Source: Marinosulfonomonas sp. (GTDB lineage Bacteria > Pseudomonadota > Alphaproteobacteria > Rhodobacterales > Rhodobacteraceae). Taken from it: DNA of 64,000 nt. The translations under genes and the position numbers were made by a program. How positions within the stretch are numbered: the first letter of the stretch is position 1; each line of letters opens with the position of its first letter. The stretch covers positions 1,579-65,578 of the forward strand of contig DAOURA010000001.1 of the NCBI GenBank assembly GCA_030625325.1, in the 5' to 3' direction. The notes under the pieces were generated by a model. The model saw only the letters and a list, made by a program, of their open reading frames with translations. It searched no databases and was not told where the DNA came from. This document shows, in pieces, positions 11,418 to 49,374 of this stretch.

Positions 11418-13466
11418 ATGTCTTACGGGCCAATGGATAACGCCGCCGGTGGTGAAAGCCCCCGGCGGTTGTTCGTTTTTAACGGTGGGTTTCTAACCCA
11501 GGGCCGGGTGCGCCGAATACTTGAATTATCCGGCTGGAACATTTCCCTTGGCAAACCGGGTGCTAAGGATTGGGTTGGCGTCTGGGGCAAAAGCCCGACA
11601 TCACCACGGGGTGAAGCCGTCGCCAGCGCCACAGATGCCCATATCTTGCGGGTCGAAGACAGCTTTTTACGATCGGTCCACCCCGGGCGGGATGGCGAGG
11701 CCCCGATTGGGCTGAACATTGACAAAACCGGCGTGCATTTTGACAGCTCTGCCCCCAGTGATCTGGAAACCCTGCTGGCCACAGCAGCGCTGGATGATGC
11801 GGCAGTTCTGAACCGGGGGCGCGATGCATTGGCGCGCATCAGGCGGGCGCATTTATCAAAATATAACGCTTTTGATCCCGAACATGAATTACCTAAAGCC
11901 CCCTATGTTCTGGTGATTGATCAGTCCCGCGGTGATGCATCCATTGAACATGGGGGTGCAAACGCCGCTACATTTGCCGAAATGCTGGTGTTTGCACTGA
12001 CTGAGCACCCCGGAAACCGCATCGTGATAAAGGGTCACCCGGAAACCGCCGCCGGGCATCGTGACGGGCATTTTAGCGTTAATGACGAAACCGATCGCGT
12101 CACATATCTGGCCGACCCGGTTAGCCCCTGGGCCCTGATGGAAGGGGCCACCGCCGTTTATACGGTATCGTCACAACTGGGGTTCGAAGCCATTTTTGCG
12201 GGCCACAAACCACGGGTCTTTGGCCAGCCATTTTACAGCGGCTGGGGCCTGACCCTTGACGAAAACCCGGTGGCACGGCGTGAACGCAAACTGACCCGCG
12301 CACAGTTGTTTGCCGGTTCGATGATCCTTTATCCCACATGGTATGATCCGACCCGTGACCAGATTTGTCCGCTTGAGGATGCAATCAGCGCCCTTGAGGC
12401 CAAAGTGCGTGCTTGGCGGGAAGATCGGGCGGGGTATACGGCCCTTGGGATGCGCCGTTGGAAGCGGCCCCACCTGAACAGGTTCTTCGGCCAATCCCAA
12501 AGGGTTAGATACGTCAGTTCACCAGAAAAGGCCCTGTTATCGGCCCGCACCGGGGGCAGAAATCTGTTGGTCTGGGCCAGCCATGCAGATGGGCTGGGGG
12601 ATACGGGCGATGTGCCGGTTATTCGGGTTGAAGATGGTTTCATCCGCTCACGCGGGTTGGGCGCCGGATTGGTCGCGCCCCTGTCGTTGGTCGCCGATGA
12701 TCTGGGGATTTACTATGACCCAAACCGCGAAAGCAGGCTGGAGCGCCTGATCACGGCCTCGGTTAATCTGGACACCGGGGCGCTGTTGCGGGCAGAAAAA
12801 TTGATGCGGCAAATCAGCCGGGCAGGGATTTCCAAATACAATCTTGATCCCGCCCCCCTGCCCGACCTGCCGGATGGCAAAAAAATACTGGTGCCCGGTC
12901 AGGTGGAAGATGATGCATCGATCCTGAAAGGCTGTGGTGATATTTCCTGCAACATTGATTTACTGGCCCGCACGCGCGCCGATAACCCGGCGGCAGTGAT
13001 TATTTACAAACCCCACCCGGATGTTGAAGCCGGGTTGCGCGAGGGCAAATTAACCGAACAGGACGCCCTGAAATACGCCGATCTGGTGGTGAACAACGCC
13101 GATCCTGCCGCCCTGTTGGCGCAGGTGAATGAGGTCTGGACCATGACATCCCTGCTGGGGTTCGAAGCCCTGATCCGGGGCGTTCCCGTAACCTGTGTCG
13201 GGGCACCGTTTTATGCGGGCTGGGGGCTGACCCGCGATTTGGGCGATGTACCAAAGCGGCGGGTTGCGCGCCCCGAACTGGCGGCATTTGTGCATGCCTG
13301 TCTGATTGATTATCCGCGATATGTTGACCCCATCAGCGGGCGGCCCTGTTCGGTTGAACTGGTGTTAGAGCGGCTGACCAATGGGGGAATTCCGCCTGCC
13401 GGGCGTTGGAACCGGGTATTGGCGAAACTGCAGGGTATTGTTGGCGGGGGCCGGCGACGGGGGTAA
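11418..13466 (+). CDS. kpsC: capsule polysaccharide biosynthesis protein KpsC (tandem beta-Kdo transferase type)
   Basis: The architecture is duplicated: VEDSFLRSV and VEDGFIRSRGLG...PLSLVADDLGIYYD, then SKYNL, PGQVEDDAS, YKPHPDV and PFYAGWGLT. All are colinear with blocks I recall from E. coli KpsC. Confidence 0.88.
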   Translation: MSYGPMDNAAGGESPRRLFVFNGGFLTQGRVRRILELSGWNISLGKPGAKDWVGVWGKSPTSPRGEAVASATDAHILRVEDSFLRSVHPGRDGEAPIGLNIDKTGVHFDSSAPSDLETLLATAALDDAAVLNRGRDALARIRRAHLSKYNAFDPEHELPKAPYVLVIDQSRGDASIEHGGANAATFAEMLVFALTEHPGNRIVIKGHPETAAGHRDGHFSVNDETDRVTYLADPVSPWALMEGATAVYTVSSQLGFEAIFAGHKPRVFGQPFYSGWGLTLDENPVARRERKLTRAQLFAGSMILYPTWYDPTRDQICPLEDAISALEAKVRAWREDRAGYTALGMRRWKRPHLNRFFGQSQRVRYVSSPEKALLSARTGGRNLLVWASHADGLGDTGDVPVIRVEDGFIRSRGLGAGLVAPLSLVADDLGIYYDPNRESRLERLITASVNLDTGALLRAEKLMRQISRAGISKYNLDPAPLPDLPDGKKILVPGQVEDDASILKGCGDISCNIDLLARTRADNPAAVIIYKPHPDVEAGLREGKLTEQDALKYADLVVNNADPAALLAQVNEVWTMTSLLGFEALIRGVPVTCVGAPFYAGWGLTRDLGDVPKRRVARPELAAFVHACLIDYPRYVDPISGRPCSVELVLERLTNGGIPPAGRWNRVLAKLQGIVGGGRRRG

Positions 13467-34524: not shown

Positions 34525-35832
34525 TCACCATAACGGGCCAAAAGCGCGGAACTGTATTGCTTCAAGTATGACGGCATTCGTATTCAGGGTGTAGACTTTG
34601 TTTGTTTCCTGACTGTCTTCATATATTCCAGCGGGCCAGCCATCTGTGGCTGAACCGAGGGGGGCGATATAGTCCATCAGGTCCGATGTGTATTTCGTAT
34701 CAAAGATAGCATCCCAAGCGAAAACTGCCTTTAGGCTAAGGGTGCGTTTGTCGGGGTGCGCCTCTCCGCTTTCGGCAAGTACGGCCCATTCAACGCCATC
34801 ACTATAAACCGAAGAATACAAAAAATATGGTGGTTGGTCGATGTGATCTTCTGAAACCATCGTCGGAATGCCAGTCCGCTTGAAGCGCGCTTCCTGTGCC
34901 AAGTATATATGTTCGGCCAGTATGCGGCTTTCACTATCAAACCCATATTCCAGCCCCTGAAGAATATAAGGTTCACTGAGCGTGGGGGAAATTGCCTGAA
35001 AGGACGCAGATTGTCGCAAATCAATGGGGATTTCCACGCCTTCAACAGTTTCCCATTCCATGATGCGGCGGGCGGAAAAGGCAAGGCCAACATCCATTCC
35101 CCACATGGCAGCGGCGCGGGCACCGTATTGTTCATATCCGATCCGCCCTTCCTGACGTGATACCAGTACGCCGCCTTCACGGTTTGTACCGATCAGGTCC
35201 CCCCGGTGGGCCATTGCACCAAGGTCCCATTTATTGACAACACTTCGAATATTATCGCCGTACTGGGGCGCATGCCGTTCCAGCACCCGGAATGACAACA
35301 GCATTCTGGAAACATCCAGCGCCGACCACCCTATACCATTTTCTTCGATCCCATTTTCGTAATTCACCATTGCAAGGGATTGGGTATTATAGACCTTATT
35401 AGGCAACTGACCATCCACCAGATCAAGCAATAAAAATGATTGTAAAAGCCTGGATACCCTTTCATCAAAGCCCTGTTCATCAAGAATTTTCAGCCTGTAT
35501 GCAGACACAAGCGCCATCAGGTAAGAACCCTGATCCCACAAGGTGCTTGATGCAATGCCGGCGACCGCGTTGGCCAGGCCGGTTTCAGGGTTGGTATTAT
35601 CTTTGAAATACGCCCAGGCAATTTGCGCCGCCTGCCGGTCCGCCTTGGACAGGGGGCGTTCACCGGGCACCTCAAGCAATAATGGCTGGGTAAGGTTGAT
35701 GCGCTCTGTGTCTGAAACCGAAACCAATCGGGCCGCACCATCCAGATAAATTGCGGCACCAATTGCGATAAGCAATCCGGCGATGAAAAACAGCGGTGAC
35801 CTGGAGGTCGGAATATTATGCGTTTTGGGCAT
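34525..35832 (-). CDS. membrane-anchored periplasmic protein, DUF3131-like (paralogue A)
   Basis: An N-terminal TM anchor (LFFIAGLLIAIGAAIY) is present. The blocks ETGLANAV, LPNKVY, QEGRIGYEQY, LQGLEYGFD, YFLYSSVYSDG and NTNAVILEA are shared with 40420-42108. The family name is from memory and was not verified. Confidence 0.7.
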   Translation of the reverse strand: MPKTHNIPTSRSPLFFIAGLLIAIGAAIYLDGAARLVSVSDTERINLTQPLLLEVPGERPLSKADRQAAQIAWAYFKDNTNPETGLANAVAGIASSTLWDQGSYLMALVSAYRLKILDEQGFDERVSRLLQSFLLLDLVDGQLPNKVYNTQSLAMVNYENGIEENGIGWSALDVSRMLLSFRVLERHAPQYGDNIRSVVNKWDLGAMAHRGDLIGTNREGGVLVSRQEGRIGYEQYGARAAAMWGMDVGLAFSARRIMEWETVEGVEIPIDLRQSASFQAISPTLSEPYILQGLEYGFDSESRILAEHIYLAQEARFKRTGIPTMVSEDHIDQPPYFLYSSVYSDGVEWAVLAESGEAHPDKRTLSLKAVFAWDAIFDTKYTSDLMDYIAPLGSATDGWPAGIYEDSQETNKVYTLNTNAVILEAIQFRAFGPLW

Positions 35833-37603
35833 TTAACAGGCCTCCGGCTGGTGGTTTTTTTCGTTTGTTCATGTGGGGGCCCGGGGGGGTCCATAAACTC
35901 ATCCTGATGATTTTCACAAAGGAAAGCCCGCCCCAGAAAATCCAGAATAAATTAACAACCAAAAGGGAACTGCTATAGCCTTTGATGTGTAACATTGTTG
36001 AAAATACCCCCCAAATCACCGCAACCAAAAACAGCAACAGCACCATGATGGCCGGTATCGCATAACGCATTCTTTGCGTTGCAAATAACGTTTTTGGGGT
36101 GGTCGGAAACCCCAGTTTTTTTTGGCGAAGAACCTGGAAAAGCCCTTTGATTTGCAATGGGATGGTCGCAATGGCCATCACCCGGCCAGCATGGGTACTG
36201 TAGCCCTTGCAGGCAACATGCATGGCCAGTTCGTTCACCAGCAATGCAGGCAATAAATGCACAAAAAATTCAAGCGAGAACGCCTTAACCGGCGACAGGG
36301 CCGTAAACAGGGAAACCACGGGCGCAAACAACAAAACCGGCATCCAAAGCACAGCAAGGTATGACCAGAATGTTGCGCCATAGTGCAGTTTGGTTGCCGC
36401 CGGTATGCCCCCCATCAATAACGGGTTGGCCCTGAGCATGATATCAAAGGTTCCGCCAGCATATTTCAACCGCTGGGTAGACCAGGCCTGCATGGTCATG
36501 GGCGAAAGCATCCGGGCCTCAATATCCGGGTGAAATACCGATTTCCACCCGCGGGCCTGCATCAAAATGGATGTATAGATGTCTTCCGAAACATGGAATT
36601 TGTAAGGCTCAAGCTGAACCATGTGCAGTACAGATTTTTCGCCAATGCGCTTTTTTATTTTATGAACTTGCTGGCCTTTATAATGCAGCGCATTTGAAAA
36701 CACGGCCTCACGGCGGTGTATTGACCCCGCACCACAGCAAAACGATGCATTATTCCGGTTTCTGCGCCGTTGTATAATATCAAAAAAGATCACCGGGTCC
36801 GAAAGAAACGGATCCCGCCCTATTTTCTGTTCTCCGGTGATAAACCCCATAATTCGCACCAGATAGGGGCGAAGGGCGCCGGGAACCGGGCTTAAGACCG
36901 CCATCCAGTCCCGCCCTTGCGGGATATCATAAAACCACTGGGGGGTTTGAACCCATGCAACTTTTGGATCCCGGAAATACCCCAGAGTATTCATAAGAAA
37001 CCCTGGGAAGACACGCGTATCCGCATCGCAGATCAGAACAAAGTCACCCCTGGTCTGCATAAGTGCGCTGCAAAGATTGCCGGCTTTGTACCCGATATTA
37101 TTTTCCCGCCGCAGGTAATTAACCTGCTGCCGGTTTGCCAGGTCGCGCATGCAATCGCGGCCCCCGTCATCAAGAACATGAATACTCAGGCTGACACCGG
37201 CAGGAAGTTTCAGCGCCTTTGCATCAGTAATAGATGGCCCGACAATATCAGTGCTTTCATCGAAGGTGGTTATAAACAGGTCCACGGTGATGTTGCCATC
37301 ATCTTCAAGGTGGGCATCGCGCCGACAACCGGGCGGGGGGGCTTTGGGGGTGTCCTGTTCACGCCATATGTCATGAAAAGACAAAACCGTGCCGATGAAA
37401 GCCATAGTCTCGGCAATGGCGACACTAACTGAAAAAACCATAGCGTCCGGGTTTAACGAAGCCGTCCAGCGCCAGTGCAGATACCACAGGGCCAACCCGG
37501 CAGTCAGCCCCGCCAGCACATGCCAAAGACCGTGCCGAAATGGGGACATATAGGTGGTTGCGGGGGGGCGGACATGATCAAATGCCCTGAAGTAAGGCTT
37601 CAT
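35816..37603 (-). CDS. BcsA-like processive family-2 glycosyltransferase (membrane-embedded glycan synthase) without a PilZ domain
   Basis: The motifs are colinear with cellulose synthase: LDDGGRD, GYKAGN, CDADT, VQTPQWF, FCCGAGSIHRR, VSEDIYTS and QRLKYAGG (in place of QxxRW). Two N-terminal TM helices and several C-terminal ones are present. Confidence 0.82.
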   Translation of the reverse strand: MKPYFRAFDHVRPPATTYMSPFRHGLWHVLAGLTAGLALWYLHWRWTASLNPDAMVFSVSVAIAETMAFIGTVLSFHDIWREQDTPKAPPPGCRRDAHLEDDGNITVDLFITTFDESTDIVGPSITDAKALKLPAGVSLSIHVLDDGGRDCMRDLANRQQVNYLRRENNIGYKAGNLCSALMQTRGDFVLICDADTRVFPGFLMNTLGYFRDPKVAWVQTPQWFYDIPQGRDWMAVLSPVPGALRPYLVRIMGFITGEQKIGRDPFLSDPVIFFDIIQRRRNRNNASFCCGAGSIHRREAVFSNALHYKGQQVHKIKKRIGEKSVLHMVQLEPYKFHVSEDIYTSILMQARGWKSVFHPDIEARMLSPMTMQAWSTQRLKYAGGTFDIMLRANPLLMGGIPAATKLHYGATFWSYLAVLWMPVLLFAPVVSLFTALSPVKAFSLEFFVHLLPALLVNELAMHVACKGYSTHAGRVMAIATIPLQIKGLFQVLRQKKLGFPTTPKTLFATQRMRYAIPAIMVLLLFLVAVIWGVFSTMLHIKGYSSSLLVVNLFWIFWGGLSFVKIIRMSLWTPPGPHMNKRKKPPAGGLLNAQNA

Positions 37604-39102
37604 TGTGCTTTTGCTGCCTGTGTTTGATCACGCCCGGCGTCCGGGGCTGTTGTGCGCGCCTCACCAACATATTCCAGAGGGTCCATGTTTTGGGGGCTTC
37701 CATCCGCAAACTGAATGGCAACCGACCAATTCGGGTGGGTTATCTGACCATCAATAATGGCCCCTTTCTGAACATGGGTGTTGGGCATGACCATGCTGTT
37801 ACGCACAATACTGCGCCCACTTATGATGGCCCCGCGCCCAATAACTGCGGGGCCTTCTATTTTTGCCCCTGCTGAAATCTTTGCGCCGGGGCCAATATAG
37901 CATGGGCCAGATATTTTGGCCCGCCGTGATATAATGGCGTCCTTGTCCACCCATTGCAGCGGGTTTCGCAAAACCCCCTCGGGGGTGGCATTGGGAACAT
38001 GGCCGCCCAAAACCGACACGGCAGCCGCAAAATAGTCTTTTGCGCATCCTATATCTGTCCAGGAAAAGCCCTGGCTATAGGCATGCATTGCACCGCCGGC
38101 ATCCATAATGCGCGGCAACAGGTCGGCGCCAATATCCTGATCATGCATTTCCTGCATCAGTGACAAAACACGCGGGTTAAAAATATAAATCCCGGTATTT
38201 GCCAGTGTAGAATCTATGGTTCCACGGGCAGGCTTTTCTTTGAACCTAAGAATACGGCCATTCACATCAACATCTATCATCCCGTATTTATGGGTTTTAT
38301 CGGAAGGAACGCTAAGTGTGGCGATGGTTACATCTGCATCGGTTCTTTGATGCTGGGCCAGCATATCGGCCAGATCTATGTCGATAAGCGCATCACCACA
38401 AACGACCAGAAAGTCGGAATTAAACGCGTTGTGATCTGCTTGCAGCTTCCTGATGGTAGAGGCGGAGCCAAGCGGGCCTGGCTTCCATATTCCATTCCAG
38501 TAATTCCCTTCGTTCAGATAAAAAACAGACTGAAACGGTCTGGAATTTTTTGCAAAATAACTATGAATTTGCGGCCCAAGATGGCCGGGATTCAGAAAAA
38601 CTTCCCTTATGCCAAAGCTTTCAAGGTGGTCCAGTATGCGCGCAAGCACGGGTTTTCCCAGCATGTCCAGCATTGGTTTTGGCACTTCATCACTCAAAGG
38701 TGCCAGCCGCGCGCCCCTACCTGCACACAGCACCAGCACCCGCAGGTCCGCCAACTGGCAGGCACGAAACTGTGGTGCTTTCAGGACATGCTGCACATCA
38801 TCAAAGTGCTGGATGGAATGTTCAAGATTTCCGGCCACCAGACGCCGGATGATGCTGTTTGAAAGGCTGCACAGGGCCGCAGGTATCGCATGGGGGCGGG
38901 ACACCATTTCAACCAGAGAGGTTATGCCACTTATACTTACCCGTGAAACTTTTGCGCAATCCAGAATGACAAGGCGCTTTCCCTGTTGCTGCAGGCGAAA
39001 TATGATCCGCTCCAGTGCCGCCAGGGAATCTGTATGCACCAATGGGCCAAAAACCTTAATCACGGCCACGCAATCACCGCGGGCTTCAATTTCAAACACC
39101 AT
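37600..39102 (-). CDS. STAS domain fused to a sugar-1-phosphate nucleotidyltransferase with a left-handed beta-helix C-terminus
   Basis: Residues 1-110 or so look like an anti-sigma antagonist (VAVIKVFGPLVHTDSLAALERII...LVILDCAKVSRVSISGITSLVEMV). Next comes LCAGRGARLAPLSDEVPKPML, the GxGxRxxPL..PK NTP-transferase signature. The C-terminus has hexapeptide repeats (GPGAKISAGAKIEGPAVIGRGAIISG). Confidence 0.8.
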   Translation of the reverse strand: MVFEIEARGDCVAVIKVFGPLVHTDSLAALERIIFRLQQQGKRLVILDCAKVSRVSISGITSLVEMVSRPHAIPAALCSLSNSIIRRLVAGNLEHSIQHFDDVQHVLKAPQFRACQLADLRVLVLCAGRGARLAPLSDEVPKPMLDMLGKPVLARILDHLESFGIREVFLNPGHLGPQIHSYFAKNSRPFQSVFYLNEGNYWNGIWKPGPLGSASTIRKLQADHNAFNSDFLVVCGDALIDIDLADMLAQHQRTDADVTIATLSVPSDKTHKYGMIDVDVNGRILRFKEKPARGTIDSTLANTGIYIFNPRVLSLMQEMHDQDIGADLLPRIMDAGGAMHAYSQGFSWTDIGCAKDYFAAAVSVLGGHVPNATPEGVLRNPLQWVDKDAIISRRAKISGPCYIGPGAKISAGAKIEGPAVIGRGAIISGRSIVRNSMVMPNTHVQKGAIIDGQITHPNWSVAIQFADGSPQNMDPLEYVGEARTTAPDAGRDQTQAAKAQ

Positions 39103-40236
39103 TTATGCTTTCTCCGGCTTGGCAGGGATGGCCCTGCTGTAGCCTGGCAATGGCCCAAGGCCGATCGTCCATGCAAACAGGGATGAACGGCGCAGTACAA
39201 CGACCAGAACACCGGTTGCCGGCAGCACCACGCCAATTTTCACCAACACCTGCAGCGTCGGTGAAAGGCCGCGGCCATGAATACCGATTTCAGCAAGATC
39301 AAGAAAAATGGGGTGGCACAGGTAAATGCCAAATGAATAGGGCGCTATACGGGACAAAACCAACGGCCAGTTGCGGTGCGCCAGTGACATGGCCCCCAGA
39401 AACAACAGCACCGGCATCAAAAAATCGGCCCAGTACCCAGGTAAATAGTCAAACGGCCACACGCCCGTTTCAATGGTCCTTTGGGTGGCAATCAGCTTTA
39501 ATAAAAACAGTACAAGCCCTGCAAACAACACCGGGGGGAACCAGCCCCCCATACCTTTGCCCCCTGCCCGCTTCCACAGCCCAAGTGCGGCCCCCGCGAC
39601 AAGGCCATACCCAATATATGTGATGATTTTGGTGATTCTTACCAGATAGGGCAGCGCCTCAGTCCCCCAGTGATTCTGGTAAATATAACCATCAACCTGT
39701 TGGCGGAGCATAAGACATATAAAAACCCCCAGCCCCAGCAAAGGATAGCGAATTGCCAGACGGTATATTGGATAAAACAGCACCAGACCAAATAAGGTCG
39801 GAATAAAATGCATGTGGTACTTAACACTGCCTAAAATAGCGTAACCAACCCACTTTTCCGGGTTCAGAAGGTCATTCACAACCGAATCGTAATAGCCAAA
39901 TGCGTTGGCCTTTATCAATCCGTAAAAGGCGTAAAACAGTGTCCAGAATGCAAAGGGAACCAGTAAACGGCGCGATTGCTCGGCCAGTGTCTGGCGATAG
40001 GTTCGTGGTGTTTTTTCATGGGCCAGAAGCAAAAGGAAAAGCGCGATTATCAGAAAAAGCTCTGTGCGGGCGGTATAAACAACGGCCCGCAACAGCATTG
40101 GCCCCACTCTCTCGGATTGACTATAGGCAACCCACGGCTGGCCGGTGGGGTCGGCGGTGGCATGCAGGACAACTATCGATATGCCGGCTGTAATTCGCAC
40201 CGCATCAATCCAGATTTGCCGATCATCTTTTTGCAT
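39103..40236 (-). CDS. acyltransferase family 3 integral membrane protein (O-acyl/succinyl transferase type)
   Basis: IWIDAVRITAGISIVVLH is the N-terminal motif. The protein has about 10 TM helices and is 377 aa. It is the first gene of the minus-strand operon. Confidence 0.78.
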   Translation of the reverse strand: MQKDDRQIWIDAVRITAGISIVVLHATADPTGQPWVAYSQSERVGPMLLRAVVYTARTELFLIIALFLLLLAHEKTPRTYRQTLAEQSRRLLVPFAFWTLFYAFYGLIKANAFGYYDSVVNDLLNPEKWVGYAILGSVKYHMHFIPTLFGLVLFYPIYRLAIRYPLLGLGVFICLMLRQQVDGYIYQNHWGTEALPYLVRITKIITYIGYGLVAGAALGLWKRAGGKGMGGWFPPVLFAGLVLFLLKLIATQRTIETGVWPFDYLPGYWADFLMPVLLFLGAMSLAHRNWPLVLSRIAPYSFGIYLCHPIFLDLAEIGIHGRGLSPTLQVLVKIGVVLPATGVLVVVLRRSSLFAWTIGLGPLPGYSRAIPAKPEKA

Positions 40237-40304
40237 TGGTACCCTCCTGGTTGCCCACCTGACTTGGAGAGAATTAGAAAAAATTTAGTGAACGTTCTGC
40301 GATT

Positions 40305-40324
40305 TATACAATTTTTTTTGTATA
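40305..40324. promoter_or_regulatory. palindrome in the divergent control region of the glycan island
   Basis: TATACAA-TTTTTT-TTGTATA has perfect 7-bp arms. It sits in a 183-bp A+T-rich spacer between the two divergent operons. Confidence 0.35.
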
Positions 40325-40419
40325 ATCCGGATCAGGCCGGTACGGATCGGAACTCTTGGTGGAATATTAACTATTACTCACGAAAACCCCTGCTAACGCA
40401 TGACTACAGTGGATATTTC

Positions 40420-42108
40420 ATGAGCAACCCAGAAAACAAACCCGATCGCTTAAACCTTGGCCGTGGTATCATTATTTTTTTGGTATCCATATCAATTTTA
40501 ATTGGGGCCACCTGGTCTGTTGCTTCGTTCGCCCGCATCCTGTTTTTGAGCCACGAAGAAATAAACCCGATAATTGCCGGTGGGGACCTGGACGATTTAC
40601 CTGCATTGATGCGGGGTAATATTTCGACCGTCACAACCAGCATGGTTCGGGGCGAACCGGTGCGGGTTAAACCGCCGCGCATGTGTGAAATGTCGCCCAC
40701 CTATTTTGACAATTTGGACAAGGGCCTGAAACAGCCGGTCGGGTACACCCGCCGAAATGAATATGTCAGCCCCTATCGTGCCCGCCGTGGTTTCCTGAAC
40801 GAACGTGAAATGCAAGCCGCGCGTGTGGCCTGGTTGTATTTTGAAACCTACACTCAGGAAGAAACCGGGCTGGCCAATGCGGTGGGCAATTACCCATCAA
40901 CCACAATGTGGGATACGGCCTCTTATATTGCGGCAACCGTTGCGGCATATGAACTGTGCATTATTGAAAAACCGGAACTTGACCAGCGCCTGTTTCAACT
41001 ACTGGCCACCATGAAAACACTTGATCTGTTTCGCAAGGAACTACCTAATAAAGTGTACCATACCCGCACAGCAGCCAAGGTGGACTATGCGAATAAACCG
41101 GGGGAAATTGGCTTCTCCGGGCTGGACCTTGGTCGTATGCTTATCTGGCTTCGCATCATCAAAAACCGCTATCCTTACCTTGGTAATTCAGTCGATGCCA
41201 TTTTGCTTAAATGGGATTTCAGAAATGTCATCGGGGAACAGGGGCTGATTTATGGCGCGCGCATCAACAGCGAAACAAATGAAACCATCTATGATCAGGA
41301 AGGGCGCCTTGGGTATGAAGAATATGCCGCCAAAGGCTATGCGCTTTGGGGCTTCAAGCCAATACTTGCCCACCGGGCCGAGCCATTTCTGACGGCTTCG
41401 ATCTACGGTATTCAGGTCCCCTATGACGGCCGTGATCCGCGGATTTTTCATTCTCAGAACTACGTTGTAACCGAATCCTACCTGCAGGACGGGTTGGAGC
41501 TTGGCTTTGACATGGTCCACGATGACAGCAGCCCCGACTGGCTGCGATCGGATGGGTGGCGCGGCGAATTTGCCGACCGGATTTATAACGTGCAGGAAAA
41601 TCGCTGGCGCCAGACCGGGTTCATGACTGCGCGCTCGGAACATAACGTAAAGGGTGCGCCCTATTTCACATATGATACAATTTTTTCTGATGGTTACCCC
41701 TGGAACACGGTAACCCCACGGGGGGATTATGTACCGGATCATGCCGCTATTTCATCCAAAGCAGCGCTTGGGATGTGGGCGCTTTGGGATACCGACTATA
41801 CCAACATTCTTTATGAAGCGATTATTGAGCTCTACAACCCGGAAAAAGGTATGTTTGAAGGGCTGTATGAACGCGGTCAGGGCCGGGTGGAAATTTTCAC
41901 CGCAAATAACAACGGGATCATTCTAACGGCCCTGTTGCATAAAGTTCAGGGAAAAATACTGACCCCATACACCGGTGATGCAGAGGTCTGGTATACCGCA
42001 TTTCGCGATCAAAACATCCGGGAACGCCGTCACTATCCTGATCCCCCGCAAGAAGATGACTGGCTTCCCGCCTTGCGCCATTCCATCCAGAACAAGGAAG
42101 ACTTTTAA
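40420..42108 (+). CDS. membrane-anchored periplasmic protein, DUF3131-like (paralogue B, longer)
   Basis: The start was moved to the ATG at 40420 (MSNPENKPDRLNLGRGIIIFLVSISILIGATW, a TM anchor); the tracked ORF from 39976 runs antisense through the acyltransferase gene. The shared blocks are ETGLANAV, LPNKVY, QEGRLGYEEY, LQDGLELGFD, YFTYDTIFSDG and NNNGIILTA. Confidence 0.72.
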   Translation: MSNPENKPDRLNLGRGIIIFLVSISILIGATWSVASFARILFLSHEEINPIIAGGDLDDLPALMRGNISTVTTSMVRGEPVRVKPPRMCEMSPTYFDNLDKGLKQPVGYTRRNEYVSPYRARRGFLNEREMQAARVAWLYFETYTQEETGLANAVGNYPSTTMWDTASYIAATVAAYELCIIEKPELDQRLFQLLATMKTLDLFRKELPNKVYHTRTAAKVDYANKPGEIGFSGLDLGRMLIWLRIIKNRYPYLGNSVDAILLKWDFRNVIGEQGLIYGARINSETNETIYDQEGRLGYEEYAAKGYALWGFKPILAHRAEPFLTASIYGIQVPYDGRDPRIFHSQNYVVTESYLQDGLELGFDMVHDDSSPDWLRSDGWRGEFADRIYNVQENRWRQTGFMTARSEHNVKGAPYFTYDTIFSDGYPWNTVTPRGDYVPDHAAISSKAALGMWALWDTDYTNILYEAIIELYNPEKGMFEGLYERGQGRVEIFTANNNGIILTALLHKVQGKILTPYTGDAEVWYTAFRDQNIRERRHYPDPPQEDDWLPALRHSIQNKEDF

Positions 42109-43262
42109 TGAATAAATCTGTTTTTAAATGTACAATCTCGCTGATATTTTTCTGTGGGCCGGCATTGGCCCAGGACGAAGTCGCCGAATTTTCCCCCGGA
42201 AATGCGATTCTGGACACAACAATTCCCTTTGCCGCCGATGCCCGGGAAGCCGAACAGGCACTACGTGGCGCCTATGGCTGGGCAACATTTCAGGAGGGGG
42301 TGATCGAGGGCATATATTTTCGCTTTGACCCGGACGGATACGCCAGGTTTTCAACAACCCCACGCCTGGATACCGATGTATTCGAAGTGATCTGCACCCC
42401 TAAAACTACGTCCTGTCTGGGGCAAAAGGGGGCTCTAAGCATCCAACTGAATGACCAGGGGGGCCTTCAGTTAACACTTGCGAATATTTCATCCGGCGAT
42501 AATTTTTTTATCGTAGACGACCTTACAGAGCTGTCATTGCCTAACATAATATTACAACCCTTGGATAACCGCCTGGAAGGCTTATTTGCCTCAGGGGGGG
42601 AGCTTCTTGTTCGCCACGGCGCAACAGAAACCCTGCGTATCCCGCTAAGTGGGTTTTCAACTGTCTCCACCTATCTAAGGTGGGTCGCGTCGGGGCAGGA
42701 CGATGCCAGTTTCCCATATGGCTGGCCTGTTTCGGTTTCCAAAACCGTCGCAACAACTGGGGACTTGCCAACCCAGACAAGCAACCAGCAACCCCCGGCG
42801 CGTATAGAACAGGCCATCGCACCGGAAGCTACGGTTTTGAGCGAAACACTTACCAACACGCAGCGTATTGCAGAACTGGAAAACCAAATTGCGGCCCTTT
42901 TGGCCAACAAAACTGAAATATCCAGCCCCCCCCCGGCAGATGCGGAAGCCGTGGATGAAACCAGCAAAGCCACCCCAGACATCAAGGAATTACCCGCCAA
43001 ACCCAGTGAAGCTGAAATCCTGTCAACGCGGTTAAATTACCTGATGACCGAAATAGGTTTGGATTCAGCAAGCGCGCTAACGTTACTTCAGCGGACAAAG
43101 CCACCACAGGCCCCACCCGTCTGCCCGGAAGTTATAGGCGGAAATGTTGCAGACACTGCAACCGAGCCTATGGAGCACCTTCTGCAAAAATTCAGTCGGA
43201 CGGCGCACTCGGGGATAAAAACAATTCTCACGTACTTTCCACGCAAGATTACCCAGCCTTAA
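42108..43262 (+). CDS. secreted hypothetical protein (signal peptide, Pro/Ala-rich linker, coiled-coil-like segment)
   Basis: MNKSVFKCTISLIFFCGPALAQDE is a Sec signal peptide. The ATG overlaps the upstream stop (TAATG). No family was recognised. Confidence 0.6.
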   Translation: MNKSVFKCTISLIFFCGPALAQDEVAEFSPGNAILDTTIPFAADAREAEQALRGAYGWATFQEGVIEGIYFRFDPDGYARFSTTPRLDTDVFEVICTPKTTSCLGQKGALSIQLNDQGGLQLTLANISSGDNFFIVDDLTELSLPNIILQPLDNRLEGLFASGGELLVRHGATETLRIPLSGFSTVSTYLRWVASGQDDASFPYGWPVSVSKTVATTGDLPTQTSNQQPPARIEQAIAPEATVLSETLTNTQRIAELENQIAALLANKTEISSPPPADAEAVDETSKATPDIKELPAKPSEAEILSTRLNYLMTEIGLDSASALTLLQRTKPPQAPPVCPEVIGGNVADTATEPMEHLLQKFSRTAHSGIKTILTYFPRKITQP

Positions 43263-43528
43263 CAAGCTACTTTAAGTCAATATTTACATAAAAATATGCC
43301 GGTGGCCCCAATAACCAAGCGTGTCTCGGTTTAATGCGATTCCCAACGGGCTCGTATAATTCTAAGTGGCCCTGCAAAATTGAACGGTTTGTTAAAATGC
43401 ATCTAAACGAGATGAAGAAGTGCCAAAATGAGGGAACGGCAGAAATTTTCGAATCATGCCGATATCTACTGTTTTTTAACACTATTTTTTTATTGTGAGG
43501 GTGTTTTTACCATATTTGGCGGCAATAC

Positions 43529-45508
43529 ATGTCTAGCTCTGTTCAAAAAATTCCCGGTCATGACAAGACGGCAACCACCAGCATACGCATGGAAACGCCG
43601 TCGGCTGATCCTGTGCATATAATGGATCGAAAAGCACCTGCATGGGCCCTTATCCTCGGCAGTATTTTTTCAGTAGGGGTTTTCTTTTGCCTGGCAAGTG
43701 TCGCCATATTCGCCATCTTTTTTCAAACACTGGTGGTCGGGCGCGGCGAAGACATATTAGCACCTCTGTTGATGATGGTCGCCGTAGTTCCGATGCTAGG
43801 CATTGTTGTTCTGGAATATGCGCACAACAAAATCCTAAGCGGATATCGTCACATTCGCGAACTCAACGCGCGGCGCGCCAGGGCCGCTGCCGGGGTTTTC
43901 GTGTTCGCCACACTGGTATTTTTACACCCACTTGCGGGCGTTGGCATATTGGCGGGAAGCATCGGCGGGCTATTGTTTTTATGGATATTAAGCAGGCTGA
44001 AACGCCGTGAACCCATGTGGGATTTTATCGCACAGGAAGCTGTCCCGATTTTGTCTGGCCGGGATTTTCACGGGTTGGAAATCGCCACACAACCGGCGCC
44101 CGAACATCCACTGGCCGGGGCTGTGCAAATGGCGATGATGGGCATCAGTGTGCTAAGCGCGCTTTCAACCTCCACATGGCTGGTTTCAAATGAGGTACTC
44201 GCCCCGGCCGCAGTTCTGGCGGTTTCCTTGCTGAGCTTATGGTCCACAGACGCGATCCTTGGATACATACGCCAGTTTTTGAAAACACCGCCACTACTTG
44301 ATCGGGCAACATCCCATGTGAACGCTGTGCCCGGATCAATTGAAGACGATGACTTCGCAGGTCTACTGATCAAGAACCTCAGCGTATTTAGCGATGACGG
44401 AAAAATATTAATCTCGGATTTAAACCTTAAAGCGGCCCCCGGCTCCATTACTGGTATTATGGGGGACAGCGGTGCTGGCAAAAGTCTGCTACTGCGGTCA
44501 ATCATTGACCCCTTTTCACTTTCCGGGCTGGAAATTCACGGGAACGTGCGGGTAAATTGCCATGACCTGTGGCACCGGGACGGGCAGCCCCACAGCCTGC
44601 CGGCCACTTATTTGTCCGACAACCCAATAATCTTACCCACCTCAGGCCATCAAAACCTGTCCTGTTTTCACGGTAATCAGGTTCTTGAACGGGGCCGGCG
44701 AATTTTAGAAAAGATGGTTTTTTCATCTGAACTTGCCGAAAAAATTTGCGCCCATAAAAACGCAGAAACCCTGCCCGGAATGCAGAAGAAAATGTTGGCC
44801 GCATCCCGTGCCTTTCTATTAAGCCCGGACCTGTACCTGATCGACGGGCCAGAAGACGGATTACCTGAAAAACAGATATCCATGCTGCTGGCGCAACTGA
44901 AACAAGAAACCAAACTGGGGCGAACTGTACTTCTGGTCACGCAAAACCGGGCCTTAGCCGAAGCCTGCGACACACTGATTATCATGCAGGAAGGCCGGAT
45001 CATAGATGAAGGAACCTCTGCTGAGGTACGAACACGGCAAGCAGCAGGTTGGGCCCGCTTTGTTGGTGAACGAAATCTGAATATAGACGAAAACCTGGAA
45101 ACCTGGGTCAGGTCCCATTTTAAACGTCCAGGCGACGAGATGAACCGCCGAAAGGTCTGCCATATTGCCTCAGAAATGCTTGCACATTCCTGCCAGAGCC
45201 GGAATGCGCTGGTGCAGCAATCCGTTACTTTTGAATTCAAGCACTATGAAGGGTACTGTGAAATCAGCATTCAGGATTCAGACCCGCCGATCAGCGCAGC
45301 GCAGCTGGATAAGGCCCGCCAGTCAATTGAAGATCCAGATGGCGACAGCCGCCTGACACCACTGGCCTTGATCATTGGAAGCAGCCTGTCTGTTGATGCC
45401 AGTTCAGAGCTGGATCAACGCAAAATCCTGGTGAAGGTTGCAACGATTGACCCGCGCAAAAAAGCCCGGGCAAGTCAGGGCAAAGGCACCAACATCAAAA
45501 ACGGCTAA
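43529..45508 (+). CDS. fusion protein: about 6 TM helices, a degenerate ABC-type ATPase domain, and an RsbW/SpoIIAB-like C-terminal domain
   Basis: Walker A is GDSGAGKS and the signature-like motif is LPGMQKKM. Walker B is LYLIDGPEDG (Gly where the catalytic Glu is expected) and the H-loop is LLVTQN (Gln where His is expected). The last ~130 aa follow the anti-sigma kinase pattern (VCHIASEMLAHS...CEISIQDSDPPIS), but the N-box Asn and the G-boxes are not evident. Confidence 0.68.
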   Translation: MSSSVQKIPGHDKTATTSIRMETPSADPVHIMDRKAPAWALILGSIFSVGVFFCLASVAIFAIFFQTLVVGRGEDILAPLLMMVAVVPMLGIVVLEYAHNKILSGYRHIRELNARRARAAAGVFVFATLVFLHPLAGVGILAGSIGGLLFLWILSRLKRREPMWDFIAQEAVPILSGRDFHGLEIATQPAPEHPLAGAVQMAMMGISVLSALSTSTWLVSNEVLAPAAVLAVSLLSLWSTDAILGYIRQFLKTPPLLDRATSHVNAVPGSIEDDDFAGLLIKNLSVFSDDGKILISDLNLKAAPGSITGIMGDSGAGKSLLLRSIIDPFSLSGLEIHGNVRVNCHDLWHRDGQPHSLPATYLSDNPIILPTSGHQNLSCFHGNQVLERGRRILEKMVFSSELAEKICAHKNAETLPGMQKKMLAASRAFLLSPDLYLIDGPEDGLPEKQISMLLAQLKQETKLGRTVLLVTQNRALAEACDTLIIMQEGRIIDEGTSAEVRTRQAAGWARFVGERNLNIDENLETWVRSHFKRPGDEMNRRKVCHIASEMLAHSCQSRNALVQQSVTFEFKHYEGYCEISIQDSDPPISAAQLDKARQSIEDPDGDSRLTPLALIIGSSLSVDASSELDQRKILVKVATIDPRKKARASQGKGTNIKNG

Positions 45509-48540: not shown

Positions 48541-49374
48541 TCAAAGACATGCACGCCGGGGCTCAGGCATGAGGCCGTAAACTGGCAAGACAAACGGGCC
48601 ATTTTGGCGCCGCGTCTCAGAACCGATTTTTCGTATTACCCGTTTGGGTTTTATGATGTCAGGTCTGGCTGAAAAGCACGGCCCGTTCGGGCCGCCTGAG
48701 TTGCCCCTGCCCCGTTGTTGCGCGTGGCCCCGCTGCATCAGGTCCTGAATGCGCTGCCAGTGAACCGGCGCGATAATCGCCTGATGTTGCCCCGCATAGA
48801 TCGCGCCCTTATGGACGATGCGCCCGGCATAAAGCGGATTGCTCAGGATCTTGTGGATATGACCGCGTGACAAATGCCGCCCACCCTGATCGCGGTCGCT
48901 TTTGGTGACGTAGCGTTTGGATCGTAGGCCAAGGCGATCCGCTTCCTTTGCCACAGCGTTCACCGCTCTATGTTTCTCATATAGATCAAAAAGCCTGCGC
49001 ACTGTTTTTGACTCGCCTTCATTGATGGTCAGCGTGCGCCCGGCCGCATCATAACCCAGCGGCACATAGCCACCCATCCAAAGACCTTTCTTCTTTGAAG
49101 CGGCAATCTTGTCGCGGATACGTTCCGCCGTCACTTCACGCTCAAACTGGGCAAAAGAAAGAAGCACGTTCAGTGTCAGGCGGCCCATGCTGGTGGCTGC
49201 ACTAAACGACTGTGTCACCGAGACAAATGAGGCGTTTGCGGCATCAAGCCAATCCACCAGCCTGGCAAAGTCCGCCAGTGATCGCGTCAGCCGGTCGATC
49301 TTGTAGACCACGATCTGATCAACCCGGTTTTCATCGATGTCACGCATCAGGCGTTGCAGGGCGGGCCGGTCCAT
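48541..49374 (-). pseudogene. large serine recombinase, truncated at both ends
   Basis: The sequence starts mid-domain at RPALQRLMRDIDENRVDQIVVYKIDRLTRS, so the N-terminal ~60 aa with the catalytic Ser are absent. The recombinase domain (YVPLGYD...) is present, but the zinc-ribbon/coiled-coil C-terminus is replaced by unrelated sequence. Confidence 0.68.

Follow-up and report, generated by a model that had tools for sequence, protein, structure and literature searches.

Why should an enzyme that makes an activated sugar carry at its N-terminus a domain of the kind that antagonizes anti-sigma factors? The question is raised by one gene in a 64,000-nucleotide stretch of Marinosulfonomonas sp. 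DNA (the window; contig DAOURA010000001.1), whose 500-aa product, read from an ATG start, consists of an N-terminal STAS domain, a sugar-1-phosphate nucleotidyltransferase (NTase) and a hexapeptide C-terminus (Table 1). This fusion, which an earlier note had read from the letters alone, was recovered by Pfam searches: STAS (PF01740) matches residues 5-104 (E 1.7e-8, 34.6 bits for a cut-off of 22.6), NTP_transferase (PF00483) residues 123-362 (E 2.5e-37), and Hexapep residues 401-434 (E 2.4e-8). The same N-terminal extension, with an invariant M1, is present in about 90 clusters of fusion homologues of around 495 aa, which shows that the fusion is a real gene. It represents a conserved, uncharacterized family of marine Rhodobacterales, and no description of a STAS-nucleotidyltransferase fusion was found in the literature searched.

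Table 1. Position in the window of the fusion gene, its domains and the neighbouring genes
Feature	Coordinates	Strand	Evidence or remark
DUF3131 protein A, at the end of the core operon	34525..35832	-	PF11329 E 3e-123; kept in all loci
BcsA-like family-2 glycosyltransferase (GT2), 595 aa	35816..37603	-	GT2 Pfam, CelA TIGR03030 E 2.8e-49, BcsA structures E 1e-26
STAS::NDP-sugar pyrophosphorylase fusion gene	37600..39102	-	ORF; Pfam STAS, NTP_transferase and Hexapep; ~90 homologous clusters
Family-specific C-terminal tail, residues 456-500	37603..37737	-	Family alignment; invariant W459
Left-handed beta-helix (hexapeptide), residues 385-455	37738..37950	-	Hexapep and LbH_EIF2B matches
Nucleotidyltransferase catalytic domain, residues 119-362	38017..38748	-	PF00483, 8x7s match, near-invariant catalytic motifs
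STAS domain and helical linker, residues 1-118, SpoIIAA-like	38749..39102	-	Pfam, profile against PDB antagonists, AF2/Foldseek
Codons I57-S58, canonical phospho-Ser position (Ile here) and +1 Ser	38929..38934	-	Alignment to TM1442 and RsfB
Acyl_transf_3 membrane acyltransferase, at the head of the operon	39103..40236	-	PF01757 E 6.7e-26
DUF3131 protein B	40420..42108	+	PF11329 E 4e-115; start probably at 40420 (MSNPENK), the mechanical ORF running from 39976
384-aa protein with N-terminal signal-like segment	42108..43262	+	No Pfam match
ABC659, 659-aa membrane protein: hydrophobic N-terminus, degenerate ABC ATPase, SpoIIAB-like C-terminus	43529..45508	+	ABC_tran 41.6 bits
ABC659 hydrophobic membrane region, residues ~36-248	43634..44272	+	Kyte-Doolittle spans 36-100, 117-158, 195-248
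ABC659 degenerate nucleotide-binding domain, residues ~280-505	44366..45043	+	Motif counts, 27 homologues
Pseudokinase domain of SpoIIAB/RsbW type (GHKL fold), putative partner of the STAS, residues 503-659	45035..45505	+	AF2 and Foldseek

The N-terminal domain resembles the antagonist type of STAS. Taken in isolation it is matched by Pfam with an E-value of 9.8e-10, and 29 of 32 N-termini of the family are matched singly. A profile built from the 118 N-terminal residues of the family matched the whole length of solved anti-sigma antagonists, at 2.4e-11 for 4qtp, 3.8e-9 for RsfB, 4.4e-8 for TM1442 and around 2e-6 for SpoIIAA. Concomitantly, the AF2 model (pLDDT 91.9) adopts a STAS fold whose nearest relatives are SpoIIAA chains (Foldseek, 1til_B, E 1e-6; also 1tid_B and 1th8_B). 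Together with the significant Pfam match, this confirms the reading of the first ~110 residues as STAS. The C-terminal helices of the model (103-108 and 110-117) continue directly into the NTase, and L117 is invariant. In the alignment of 45 family sequences the most conserved STAS stretch is D48...S/A-G-L-A-A-L-V-E-L, which we take to be the face of SpoIIAA that contacts SpoIIAB in the 1TH8 complex.

The enzyme domain is, judged by its motifs, intact. The solved UGPase 8x7s aligns with it over 324 columns at 34% identity (E 3e-59), GRGARLAPL and PKPML included, and GxGxR, PKP, GD and EKP are near-invariant across the fusion family. The catalytic and hexapeptide domains are both nearest to 8x7s, deposited as UTP--glucose-1-phosphate uridylyltransferase. 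The domain is therefore probably a UDP-glucose pyrophosphorylase of the CugP (non-GalU) type, an enzyme class already described (PMC7133116), and its product would be UDP-glucose; the best NCBIfam match of the fusion, which is below threshold, is a mannose-1-phosphate guanylyltransferase model. Relative to CugP-type enzymes, the fusion, whose own specificity is a prediction, adds the 118-aa STAS extension and the conserved C-terminal tail.

The genomic context points to a use for this precursor. The order acyltransferase, STAS-NTase, BcsA-like GT2 and DUF3131 is invariant in 19 loci (14/14 genome loci plus L082-L085 for the core order), and the acyltransferase was found in all 14 genome loci. 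Its TAA stop abuts the ATG of the STAS-NTase gene, which in turn shares an ATGA start/stop overlap with the GT2 gene. Thus the enzyme gene lies directly upstream of a BcsA-like synthase and is translationally coupled to it, in agreement with the adjacent synthase invoked by the earlier note. On the other side lies DUF3131 protein B, than which no protein of the cluster is better conserved; the 384-aa protein, read as secreted, adjoins it in 10-11 loci. The locus is a synthase-type cluster of marine Rhodobacterales, the polymer of which would be a glucan. The catalytic region of the GT2 resembles that of BcsA, which is gated by c-di-GMP via PilZ; the shorter 595-aa protein, however, gave no PilZ match in the Pfam scan, which means that the usual c-di-GMP gate is missing. 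If this synthase is regulated post-translationally, another device than PilZ is needed.

A putative partner of the STAS domain is encoded nearby. ABC659 has 27 full-length homologues, and the named ones all come from marine Rhodobacterales. No ABC_membrane domain was matched by Pfam in ABC659, though one was in its relative at locus L001. Among the 27 homologues, Walker A (GxxxxGK[ST]) and the Walker B Asp are kept in 27/27, the position of the catalytic Glu is occupied by R24/G1/H1/T1, the H-loop His is found in 0/27, and the signature is shrunk to L-[PS]-x-x-[QE]. Since Walker A is intact, the nucleotide-binding domain probably still binds ATP, and these substitutions suggest that it cannot hydrolyse it. 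The C-terminal 157 aa gave no Pfam or PDB sequence match. Their AF2 model (pLDDT 89.9, pTM 0.83) is nevertheless close to anti-sigma kinases, the best Foldseek matches being SpoIIAB (1til_E, E 2.8e-6), then RsbW (6m37_A, target-normalized TM-score 0.76), with 1tid_C and 1th8_A also found and UsfX (8ih8_C) at rank 30. A predicted SpoIIAB/RsbW fold thus lies at the very place where the earlier note had suspected a partner. Within each of the PDB complexes 1til, 1tid and 1th8, the STAS model matches one partner and the model of this C-terminal domain the other. The SpoIIAB-like domain occurs in the flank of 13 of the 19 loci; at L001 it is borne by a different, canonical ABC exporter, which indicates that the domain, and not one given ABC protein, travels with the cluster. 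In five of the 19 loci (L002-L005 and L083) the STAS is well conserved and the partner-domain gene is absent from the flank examined. Either these loci have a different or additional partner, or the gene lies elsewhere in their genomes.

Both putative partners look phosphorylation-dead. When the profile is aligned to TM1442 (LDLSSVSYMDSAGLG), the motif Ser of TM1442, presumably the phosphorylated Ser59, falls on the column of I57, and S58 is at +1; the hand alignment that had placed an Ile at the phospho-Ser position therefore holds. Only 2 of the 45 family sequences have Ser in the canonical column, and the +1 column reads S27 A14 G2 T1 P1. There is consequently no family-wide phosphorylation site, and the doubt expressed in the earlier note was justified; some members, having the +1 Ser, may still be phosphorylated. 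On the other side, as read from a profile alignment of low confidence (hhalign probability 1.1%) with SpoIIAB and RsbW, the N-box Asn is found in 0/27 and the G1 Asp in 27/27 of the ABC659 homologues, and the G1 and G2 glycines are missing in the family consensus. The fold match of the domain is independent of this alignment. Scans of the cluster, of 20 flanking genes in the window and of conserved neighbours found neither a SpoIIE/PP2C gene nor an alternative sigma gene; the only sigma gene near is the housekeeping rpoD, ~14 kb off in the window.

We propose that the SpoIIAA-type STAS on the pyrophosphorylase and the SpoIIAB/RsbW-type domain of ABC659 form a cognate pair. Binding would be phosphorylation-free, because the phospho-Ser and the ATP-binding boxes of the kinase are lost and the regions scanned hold no PP2C phosphatase gene. 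On docking, the enzyme that makes UDP-glucose would be recruited to the membrane ABC scaffold, set free or altered in its activity, and the flow of precursor to the neighbouring synthase would thereby depend on the state of the membrane ABC protein. In a mirror-tree comparison of 11 related loci, with saturated distances, STAS distances were best matched by those of the C-terminal domain (r 0.78; partial r 0.36, permutation p 0.012); with its own NTase domain the STAS showed no tracking (partial r 0.01). The signal is modest, and we hold the proposal tentatively, at a probability of about 0.45; physical contact between STAS and pseudokinase, an effect of it on the enzyme and a gating of precursor supply are what it would predict.

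The STAS could instead serve the pyrophosphorylase from within, as a regulatory or oligomerization module that binds a small ligand such as a nucleotide or keeps the enzyme in one assembly state, the SpoIIAB-like neighbour doing another job. A conserved STAS is indeed retained in the five loci without a nearby partner gene, the link to the catalytic domain is a short and conserved helix, not a flexible stretch, as would suit allosteric coupling, and the structural matches of the STAS include ligand- or protein-binding STAS domains, e.g. the YchM STAS with ACP (3ny7). However, the nearest relatives in sequence and fold are of the antagonist type (SpoIIAA, RsbV, RsfB) and not transporter STAS, an anti-sigma-type fold in the same cluster would be a coincidence, and the divergence of the STAS follows the C-terminal domain of ABC659 and not its own enzyme. 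We consider this explanation unlikely. The presence of an ABC protein in the cluster also recalls the STAS protein MlaB, which binds MlaF and tunes its ATP binding or stability; the STAS would then contact the nucleotide-binding domain, and the enzyme would be an accessory subunit of an exporter. The family STAS profile does match MlaB weakly (6xbd_K, E 1.3e-3, residues 39-84 only), and a HlyD-type protein follows the ABC protein in L082, as do its homologues in several other loci. The matches to SpoIIAA-type antagonists are nonetheless far stronger and full-length, the SpoIIAB-like domain offers the STAS a natural, dedicated receptor, and STAS distances fit this domain slightly better than the nucleotide-binding domain (partial r 0.36 versus 0.27). 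Such an arrangement seems improbable to us.

Two further explanations keep closer to canonical partner switching. In the one, the SpoIIAB-like domain would sequester a sigma factor or regulator and the STAS-enzyme, as antagonist, would free it, thereby coupling expression to the state of enzyme or substrate. The two domains do have the folds of such a pair, anti-sigma factor and antagonist, and non-canonical STAS proteins of unknown target exist, e.g. SypA (PMC8256260). Yet the conserved genes scanned in and around the cluster include no alternative sigma factor and no regulator, and the switch would have no obvious reset without ATP-binding boxes and a phosphorylatable Ser; we give it little credence. 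In the other, S58 or a different residue would be the target of a kinase and a phosphatase encoded elsewhere, in the manner of the All4160 system. Position 58 is Ser or Thr in 28 of 45 family members, and in Anabaena the kinase and phosphatase genes do not adjoin the gene of the STAS-enzyme (PMC13555669). Against this stand the residue counts in the two columns, the missing ATP-binding boxes of the only kinase-fold protein of the cluster and the lack of a PP2C match in the scanned window regions, and we regard such a switch as the least probable of all. The cluster rather points to phosphorylation-free control of polysaccharide precursor supply.

The docking that we propose departs from its closest known relatives in several respects. 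SpoIIAA-SpoIIAB and RsbV-RsbW of Bacillus show the same two folds and are likewise encoded in one cluster; here, in contrast, both partners are fused, to a sugar-activating enzyme and to a membrane ABC-type protein, the residues of the phosphorylation cycle are lost from both, the phosphatase and sigma factor are absent from the neighbourhood, and the C-terminal domain escapes Pfam. With MlaB-MlaF the locus shares a STAS and an ABC ATPase encoded together, whereas the similarity is partial and marginal, a separate receptor domain is present, and the ABC domain is without the catalytic Glu and the H-loop His. SypA of the Vibrio fischeri syp locus is also a STAS protein of a polysaccharide locus and controls the polymer post-transcriptionally via an unknown target, but it is a single-domain protein phosphorylated by SypE at Ser56 (PMC8256260), while here the STAS is fused to an enzyme and has no conserved site. 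The earlier note had not seen such wiring described for polysaccharide synthesis; taken generally, this claim can no longer stand, given the older SypA/SypE work and a report of 2026 on All4160 with HenR and Alr3423 (Anabaena PCC 7120), and on XssP, in which a STAS is fused to a polysaccharide enzyme within a partner-switch-like module (PMC13555669). Direct control of a polysaccharide enzyme via a fused STAS is thereby documented, and there too the STAS is N-terminal and regulation is proposed to act on the enzyme and not on a sigma factor (PMC13555669). All4160, however, is a glycosyltransferase of the 'bacterial sugar transferase' type, its switch runs on phosphorylation, with an active kinase and a phosphatase of the SpoIIE type, and its architecture is reported to be largely cyanobacterial (PMC13555669). 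In the Rhodobacterales system, site and kinase boxes are lost, and the STAS is carried by an NDP-sugar pyrophosphorylase, which acts a step before such a transferase.

The fusion of a STAS domain to a sugar nucleotidyltransferase, proposed in the earlier note, was confirmed by Pfam for both parts of the protein (STAS-NTase) and by structure prediction for the first. Taken in isolation, the STAS domain scored 38.6 bits for PF01740, and 29 of 32 N-termini of the family matched STAS on their own. This N-terminal extension is common to about 90 database clusters of around 495 aa, with an invariant M1. The profile of residues 1-118 gave full-length matches to solved anti-sigma antagonists, namely 4qtp (E 2.4e-11), RsfB (3.8e-9), TM1442 (4.4e-8) and SpoIIAA (about 2e-6). 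The AF2 model of the domain (pLDDT 91.9, pTM 0.85) has the beta/alpha order of a typical STAS, and its nearest Foldseek matches are the SpoIIAA chains of SpoIIAA:SpoIIAB complexes, followed by TM1442, RsbV and RsbS (TM-scores 0.56-0.79). The extension is more than a chance match.

The remainder of STAS-NTase carries the GxGxRxxPL and PKP motifs of NDP-sugar pyrophosphorylases. The GxGxR, PKP, GD and EKP positions are near-invariant over 45 homologues, and the catalytic part is intact. By far the nearest solved protein is 8x7s (E 3e-59, 34% identity, 324 columns), deposited as a UTP--glucose-1-phosphate uridylyltransferase, for which our literature search found no paper; mannose-1-phosphate guanylyltransferases come next at about E 1e-24. 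No NCBIfam equivalog threshold was reached by STAS-NTase, the best model being mannose-1-phosphate guanylyltransferase with 148 bits against a cut-off of 440. The lead of 8x7s makes UDP-glucose the most likely product. UDP-glucose pyrophosphorylases of the non-GalU 'CugP' type form a recognised class (PMC7133116). Downstream of the hexapeptide domain, a family-specific tail contains an invariant W459 and a conserved DWA..H..ADG-like motif.

STAS-NTase is encoded by the second gene of a translationally coupled set of four on the minus strand, and three divergent genes complete the cluster, the last encoding a 659-aa ABC-type protein (ABC659). The cluster lacks both a PilZ domain and a regulator gene; in particular, Pfam gave no PilZ match in the BcsA-like synthase. 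The whole cluster (34525-45508, 11 kb) has 51.2% G+C versus 56-57% in its flanks and lies between hom and glpX/recJ. In other loci it adjoins an OmpA-like gene, not hom or glpX/recJ, so that it looks like a transferable island. A fragment of a serine-recombinase gene is also found in the window. The divergent DUF3131 protein B is by far the best conserved of the cluster, with a mean pairwise distance of 0.19 versus 0.44-0.76 for the others; a literature search on the function of DUF3131 (PF11329) returned nothing useful.

Features of the STAS-NTase cluster and its surroundings (window coordinates, or residues where stated)
Feature	Position	Strand	Remarks
DUF3131 protein	34525-35832	-	
BcsA-like GT2, 595 aa	35816-37603	-	ATGA overlap with STAS-NTase; CelA model E 2.8e-49; BcsA structures E 1e-26
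STAS-NTase, 500 aa	37600-39102	-	
STAS (PF01740)	residues 5-104 of STAS-NTase	-	Pfam E 1.7e-8, 34.6 bits vs cut-off 22.6
NTP_transferase (PF00483)	residues 123-362 of STAS-NTase	-	Pfam E 2.5e-37
Hexapeptide repeats (Hexapep; C-terminal left-handed beta-helix)	residues 401-434 of STAS-NTase	-	Pfam
Family-specific tail of STAS-NTase	37603-37737	-	
Acyl_transf_3	39103-40236	-	TAA stop abuts STAS-NTase ATG
DUF3131 protein B	40420 (probable start)-42108	divergent	
384-aa protein		divergent	no known domains; between DUF3131 protein B and ABC659
ABC659	43529-45508	divergent	hydrophobic N-terminal region + ABC_tran domain
682-aa protein with Capsule_synth (KpsC-like) domain	11418-13466		
Serine-recombinase gene fragment	48541-49374		

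When one genome per species was scanned, the full-length fusion was found in 14 loci. The named carriers are marine Rhodobacterales (Pseudaestuariivita, Shimia, HTCC2150, Rhodobacterales and Rhodobacteraceae MAGs), and six MAGs among these loci are labelled Pseudomonadota only. The order acyltransferase, STAS-NTase, GT2, DUF3131 protein on a single strand is kept in 14 of 14, and the core order is identical in four further loci (L082-L085; L numbers denote loci of other genomes). Searching 1.84 billion representative proteins with the STAS profile gave 586 matches at E <= 1e-10, and about 70 of the best 150 are proteins of 400-560 aa with the STAS domain at residues 1-118. The conserved gene order and the number of profile matches show a real and moderately large family. 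Two Dadabacteria loci (L028, L034) were discarded as carriers: their apparent match started from residue 37, and L034 encodes a nucleotidyltransferase-phosphomutase-like fusion devoid of STAS. The earlier note had allowed for the fusion being already characterised; our literature search found nothing on a STAS::nucleotidyltransferase protein. In relatives (flanks of L002-L005, L083 and others), genes for OmpA-like proteins, for a PG_binding_1 (CsgG-like) protein and for a caspase-type Peptidase_C14 occur repeatedly near the cluster; the window has none of them.

The candidate partner of the STAS domain is formed by the last 157 aa of ABC659. Pfam gave no match for this segment at E <= 1, and the family profile found nothing significant in the PDB (best E 0.76, unrelated proteins). 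Its AF2 model, obtained from a 26-sequence alignment (pLDDT 89.9, pTM 0.83), was compared with the PDB by Foldseek. The ten best matches are all SpoIIAB or RsbW chains, with E values of 2.8e-6 (1til_E) to 2.9e-4 and target-normalised TM-scores of 0.64-0.76 (the highest for 6m37_A); UsfX and histidine-kinase ATP-binding domains follow in the ranking. The model thus predicts a Bergerat/GHKL fold of the SpoIIAB type, without sequence-level membership in the SpoIIAB/RsbW kinases. Furthermore, the STAS model matches chains B of 1til, 1tid and 1th8, and the SpoIIAB-like model matches chains A, C and E. These are partner chains, and the two models therefore correspond to two halves of the same complexes.

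Phosphorylation within such a pair appears unlikely because the motifs are lost on both sides. The earlier note had called it uncertain from a hand alignment placing Ile at the phospho-serine position, and both the caution and the alignment held: in the profile alignment the motif Ser of TM1442, which we take to be the phosphorylated Ser59, falls on the I57 column, S58 being at +1. The Ser/Thr that phospho-regulated antagonists conserve where helix 2 begins (SpoIIAA Ser58 position) is absent; over 45 family members this column reads M11 F6 A5 Q5 L4 R4 with Ser in only two, and the +1 column S27 A14 G2 T1 P1. On the side of the SpoIIAB-like domain, columns were placed by a weak hhalign alignment (probability 1.1%, E 0.048) to SpoIIAB and RsbW sequences; with this placement, in 27 homologues, the Glu opposite SpoIIAB E46 is retained (E22 D4), none has Asn in the Mg-ATP N-box column (F13 L9 Y2 V2 H1), the Asp of G1 is present in 27/27, within a consensus D-x-D-x-P in place of DxGxG, and the equivalent of G2 is S-P-L-A. 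Three arginines of the domain are invariant in its alignment (R13, R31 and R39, corresponding to R515, R533 and R541 of ABC659).

The ABC domain of ABC659 (ABC_tran, 41.6 bits vs a cut-off of 25) has Walker A GxxxxGK[ST] and the Walker B Asp in 27/27 homologues. The catalytic Glu position after Walker B is occupied by R24/G1/H1/T1, the window protein having Gly; the His of the H-loop is found in 0/27, and the LSGGQ signature has degenerated to L-[PS]-x-x-[QE]. Judging by the degenerate sites of other ABC proteins, this domain is predicted to bind ATP without hydrolysis.

The distribution of the SpoIIAB-like domain was followed with a local HMM. It is present in the flank of 13 of the 19 fusion loci, the window included; the locus end interrupts the ABC gene of L013, and in five loci (L002-L005, L083) the domain is absent from the examined flank. 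Roughly 15 genomes carry both the fusion and the domain. In L001 (2382-4493, minus strand) it is carried by a different protein (E 9.4e-9), a canonical ABC exporter located about 4.4 kb upstream of the core operon. This exporter has an ABC_membrane match, LSAGQ, DEP and the H-loop His, its catalytic motifs being all intact; the membrane part of ABC659 shows hydrophobic spans and no ABC_membrane match. The domain has been joined to different ABC proteins. A word-indexed search with the C-terminal profile returned three short proteins only. The sole one on a long contig, P0169, was rejected as a stand-alone domain: in the stretch L082:10001-11681, it is a 175-aa ORF corresponding to a truncated copy (profile positions 27-154), followed by an HlyD_3 membrane-fusion protein. 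Homologues of the latter follow the ABC gene in L006, L009, L014 and L008, not in the window. In Cognatishimia activa, P0096 (L085:10001-11482) has kept its STAS domain, as well as an adjoining ABC protein with the SpoIIAB-like domain. Its nucleotidyltransferase is degenerate, with GxGxR, PKP, GD and EKP all altered plus a deletion, and P0096 may be a pseudoenzyme retained for a structural or regulatory role.

These observations best support a binding-only, partner-switch-like dock between STAS-NTase and ABC659. The interpretation given in the earlier note holds in part: fold and synteny show a partner-switch link, and from them we infer the contact of the two domains, what it does to the enzyme and the polymer's chemistry. 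A SpoIIAA-type STAS domain on a UDP-glucose-forming enzyme would bind a SpoIIAB-type pseudokinase domain on a membrane ABC-type protein, and ABC659 would be the site where the precursor for the adjacent PilZ-less synthase is made, or would control its synthesis. In its complete form, to which we give a probability of roughly one in four, this would be a phosphorylation-independent partner switch between a serine-less STAS domain on a UDP-glucose pyrophosphorylase and a SpoIIAB-like pseudokinase on an ATP-binding, non-hydrolysing ABC pseudo-transporter. In this scheme, the ABC protein would serve as a membrane sensor of ATP or occupancy that captures or releases the enzyme, and flux into the BcsA-like synthase would be gated without c-di-GMP.

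Because five loci are devoid of a partner gene in the examined flank, the STAS domain may bind a different partner or act within its own protein; they speak for a rival explanation in which it is an autonomous allosteric module of the enzyme. Additional conserved genes of the loci without ABC659 were rejected as cytoplasmic STAS partners since their signal peptides denote secreted products, and the weak tblastn matches to ABC659 in L002 and L005 are ordinary 261-aa ABC ATPases without the C-terminal domain, adjoining permease-like and solute-binding-like ORFs. Pairwise distances were compared over the 11 loci having every component (window, L006-L012, L014, L084, L085), and those of STAS correlated best with the SpoIIAB-like domain (r 0.78). 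After removal of the background (GT2, both DUF3131 proteins, acyltransferase), the partial r of STAS was 0.36 with the SpoIIAB-like domain (permutation p 0.012), 0.27 with the ABC domain, to which it would bind in an MlaB-like manner according to a second rival, and 0.01 with its own catalytic domain; the 11 taxa are few and related, the STAS distances are near saturation (mean 0.76), and the co-evolution is suggestive only. In the same comparison, a partial r of 0.74 linked the nucleotidyltransferase domain to the membrane region of ABC659, a correlation for which the divergent C. activa pair may be responsible.

Of two other rivals, the first is a true sigma-factor switch; no alternative sigma factor was detected in the scanned window flanks, which consist of housekeeping genes (rpoD, dnaG, sarcosine oxidase, gdh, ychF and others). 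In the second, the STAS domain might be phosphorylated by remote enzymes; Ser is frequent in its +1 column and rare in the canonical one, and a PP2C/SpoIIE-type phosphatase was found neither among the cluster proteins, nor among the scanned conserved neighbors, nor among the 20 flanking window genes scanned.

For most bacterial polysaccharide systems of the synthase type, c-di-GMP or transcription is considered to be the on switch. Here, instead of a PilZ domain or a regulator gene, the putative halves of a partner switch are fused to the enzyme that makes the precursor and to an ABC-type protein of the membrane. The system is compact, with two small domains, and its carriers include culturable strains of Shimia, Cognatishimia and Actibacterium. 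The pair resembles SpoIIAA/SpoIIAB in its architecture and departs from these phospho-regulated families in their defining features, the Ser site, the kinase boxes and the phosphatase. The novelty claim of the earlier note, whose author had not seen such wiring described for polysaccharide synthesis, needs narrowing, as STAS-fused polysaccharide enzymes are known (PMC13555669) and an earlier case linked to polysaccharide is SypA/SypE of Vibrio (PMC8256260). In the All4160 type too, a polysaccharide biosynthetic enzyme bears a STAS domain at its N-terminus; however, that enzyme is a 'bacterial sugar transferase' regulated by STAS Ser phosphorylation, whereas ours is an NTP_transferase without the conserved Ser. 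The STAS-sugar-transferase proteins, XssP among them, are described by the authors as common in cyanobacteria and rare outside them (PMC13555669). With respect to both systems, the locus differs in its enzyme, a nucleotidyltransferase, in its lineage, in the apparent loss of phosphorylation, and in having its anti-sigma-like partner joined to an ABC pseudo-transporter.

If the pair binds, partner-switch modules can persist as pure docking devices after loss of all phosphorylation chemistry, and precursor supply, beyond the polymerase alone, would be a post-translational control point. Binding would also define a family of anti-sigma-like domains, previously unannotated and invisible to Pfam, which can be searched for elsewhere. 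A phosphorylation-independent switch, if true, would represent a new post-translational control of synthase-dependent exopolysaccharide production. Elsewhere in the window, the protein with a Capsule_synth domain indicates a separate polysaccharide function of the capsule type.
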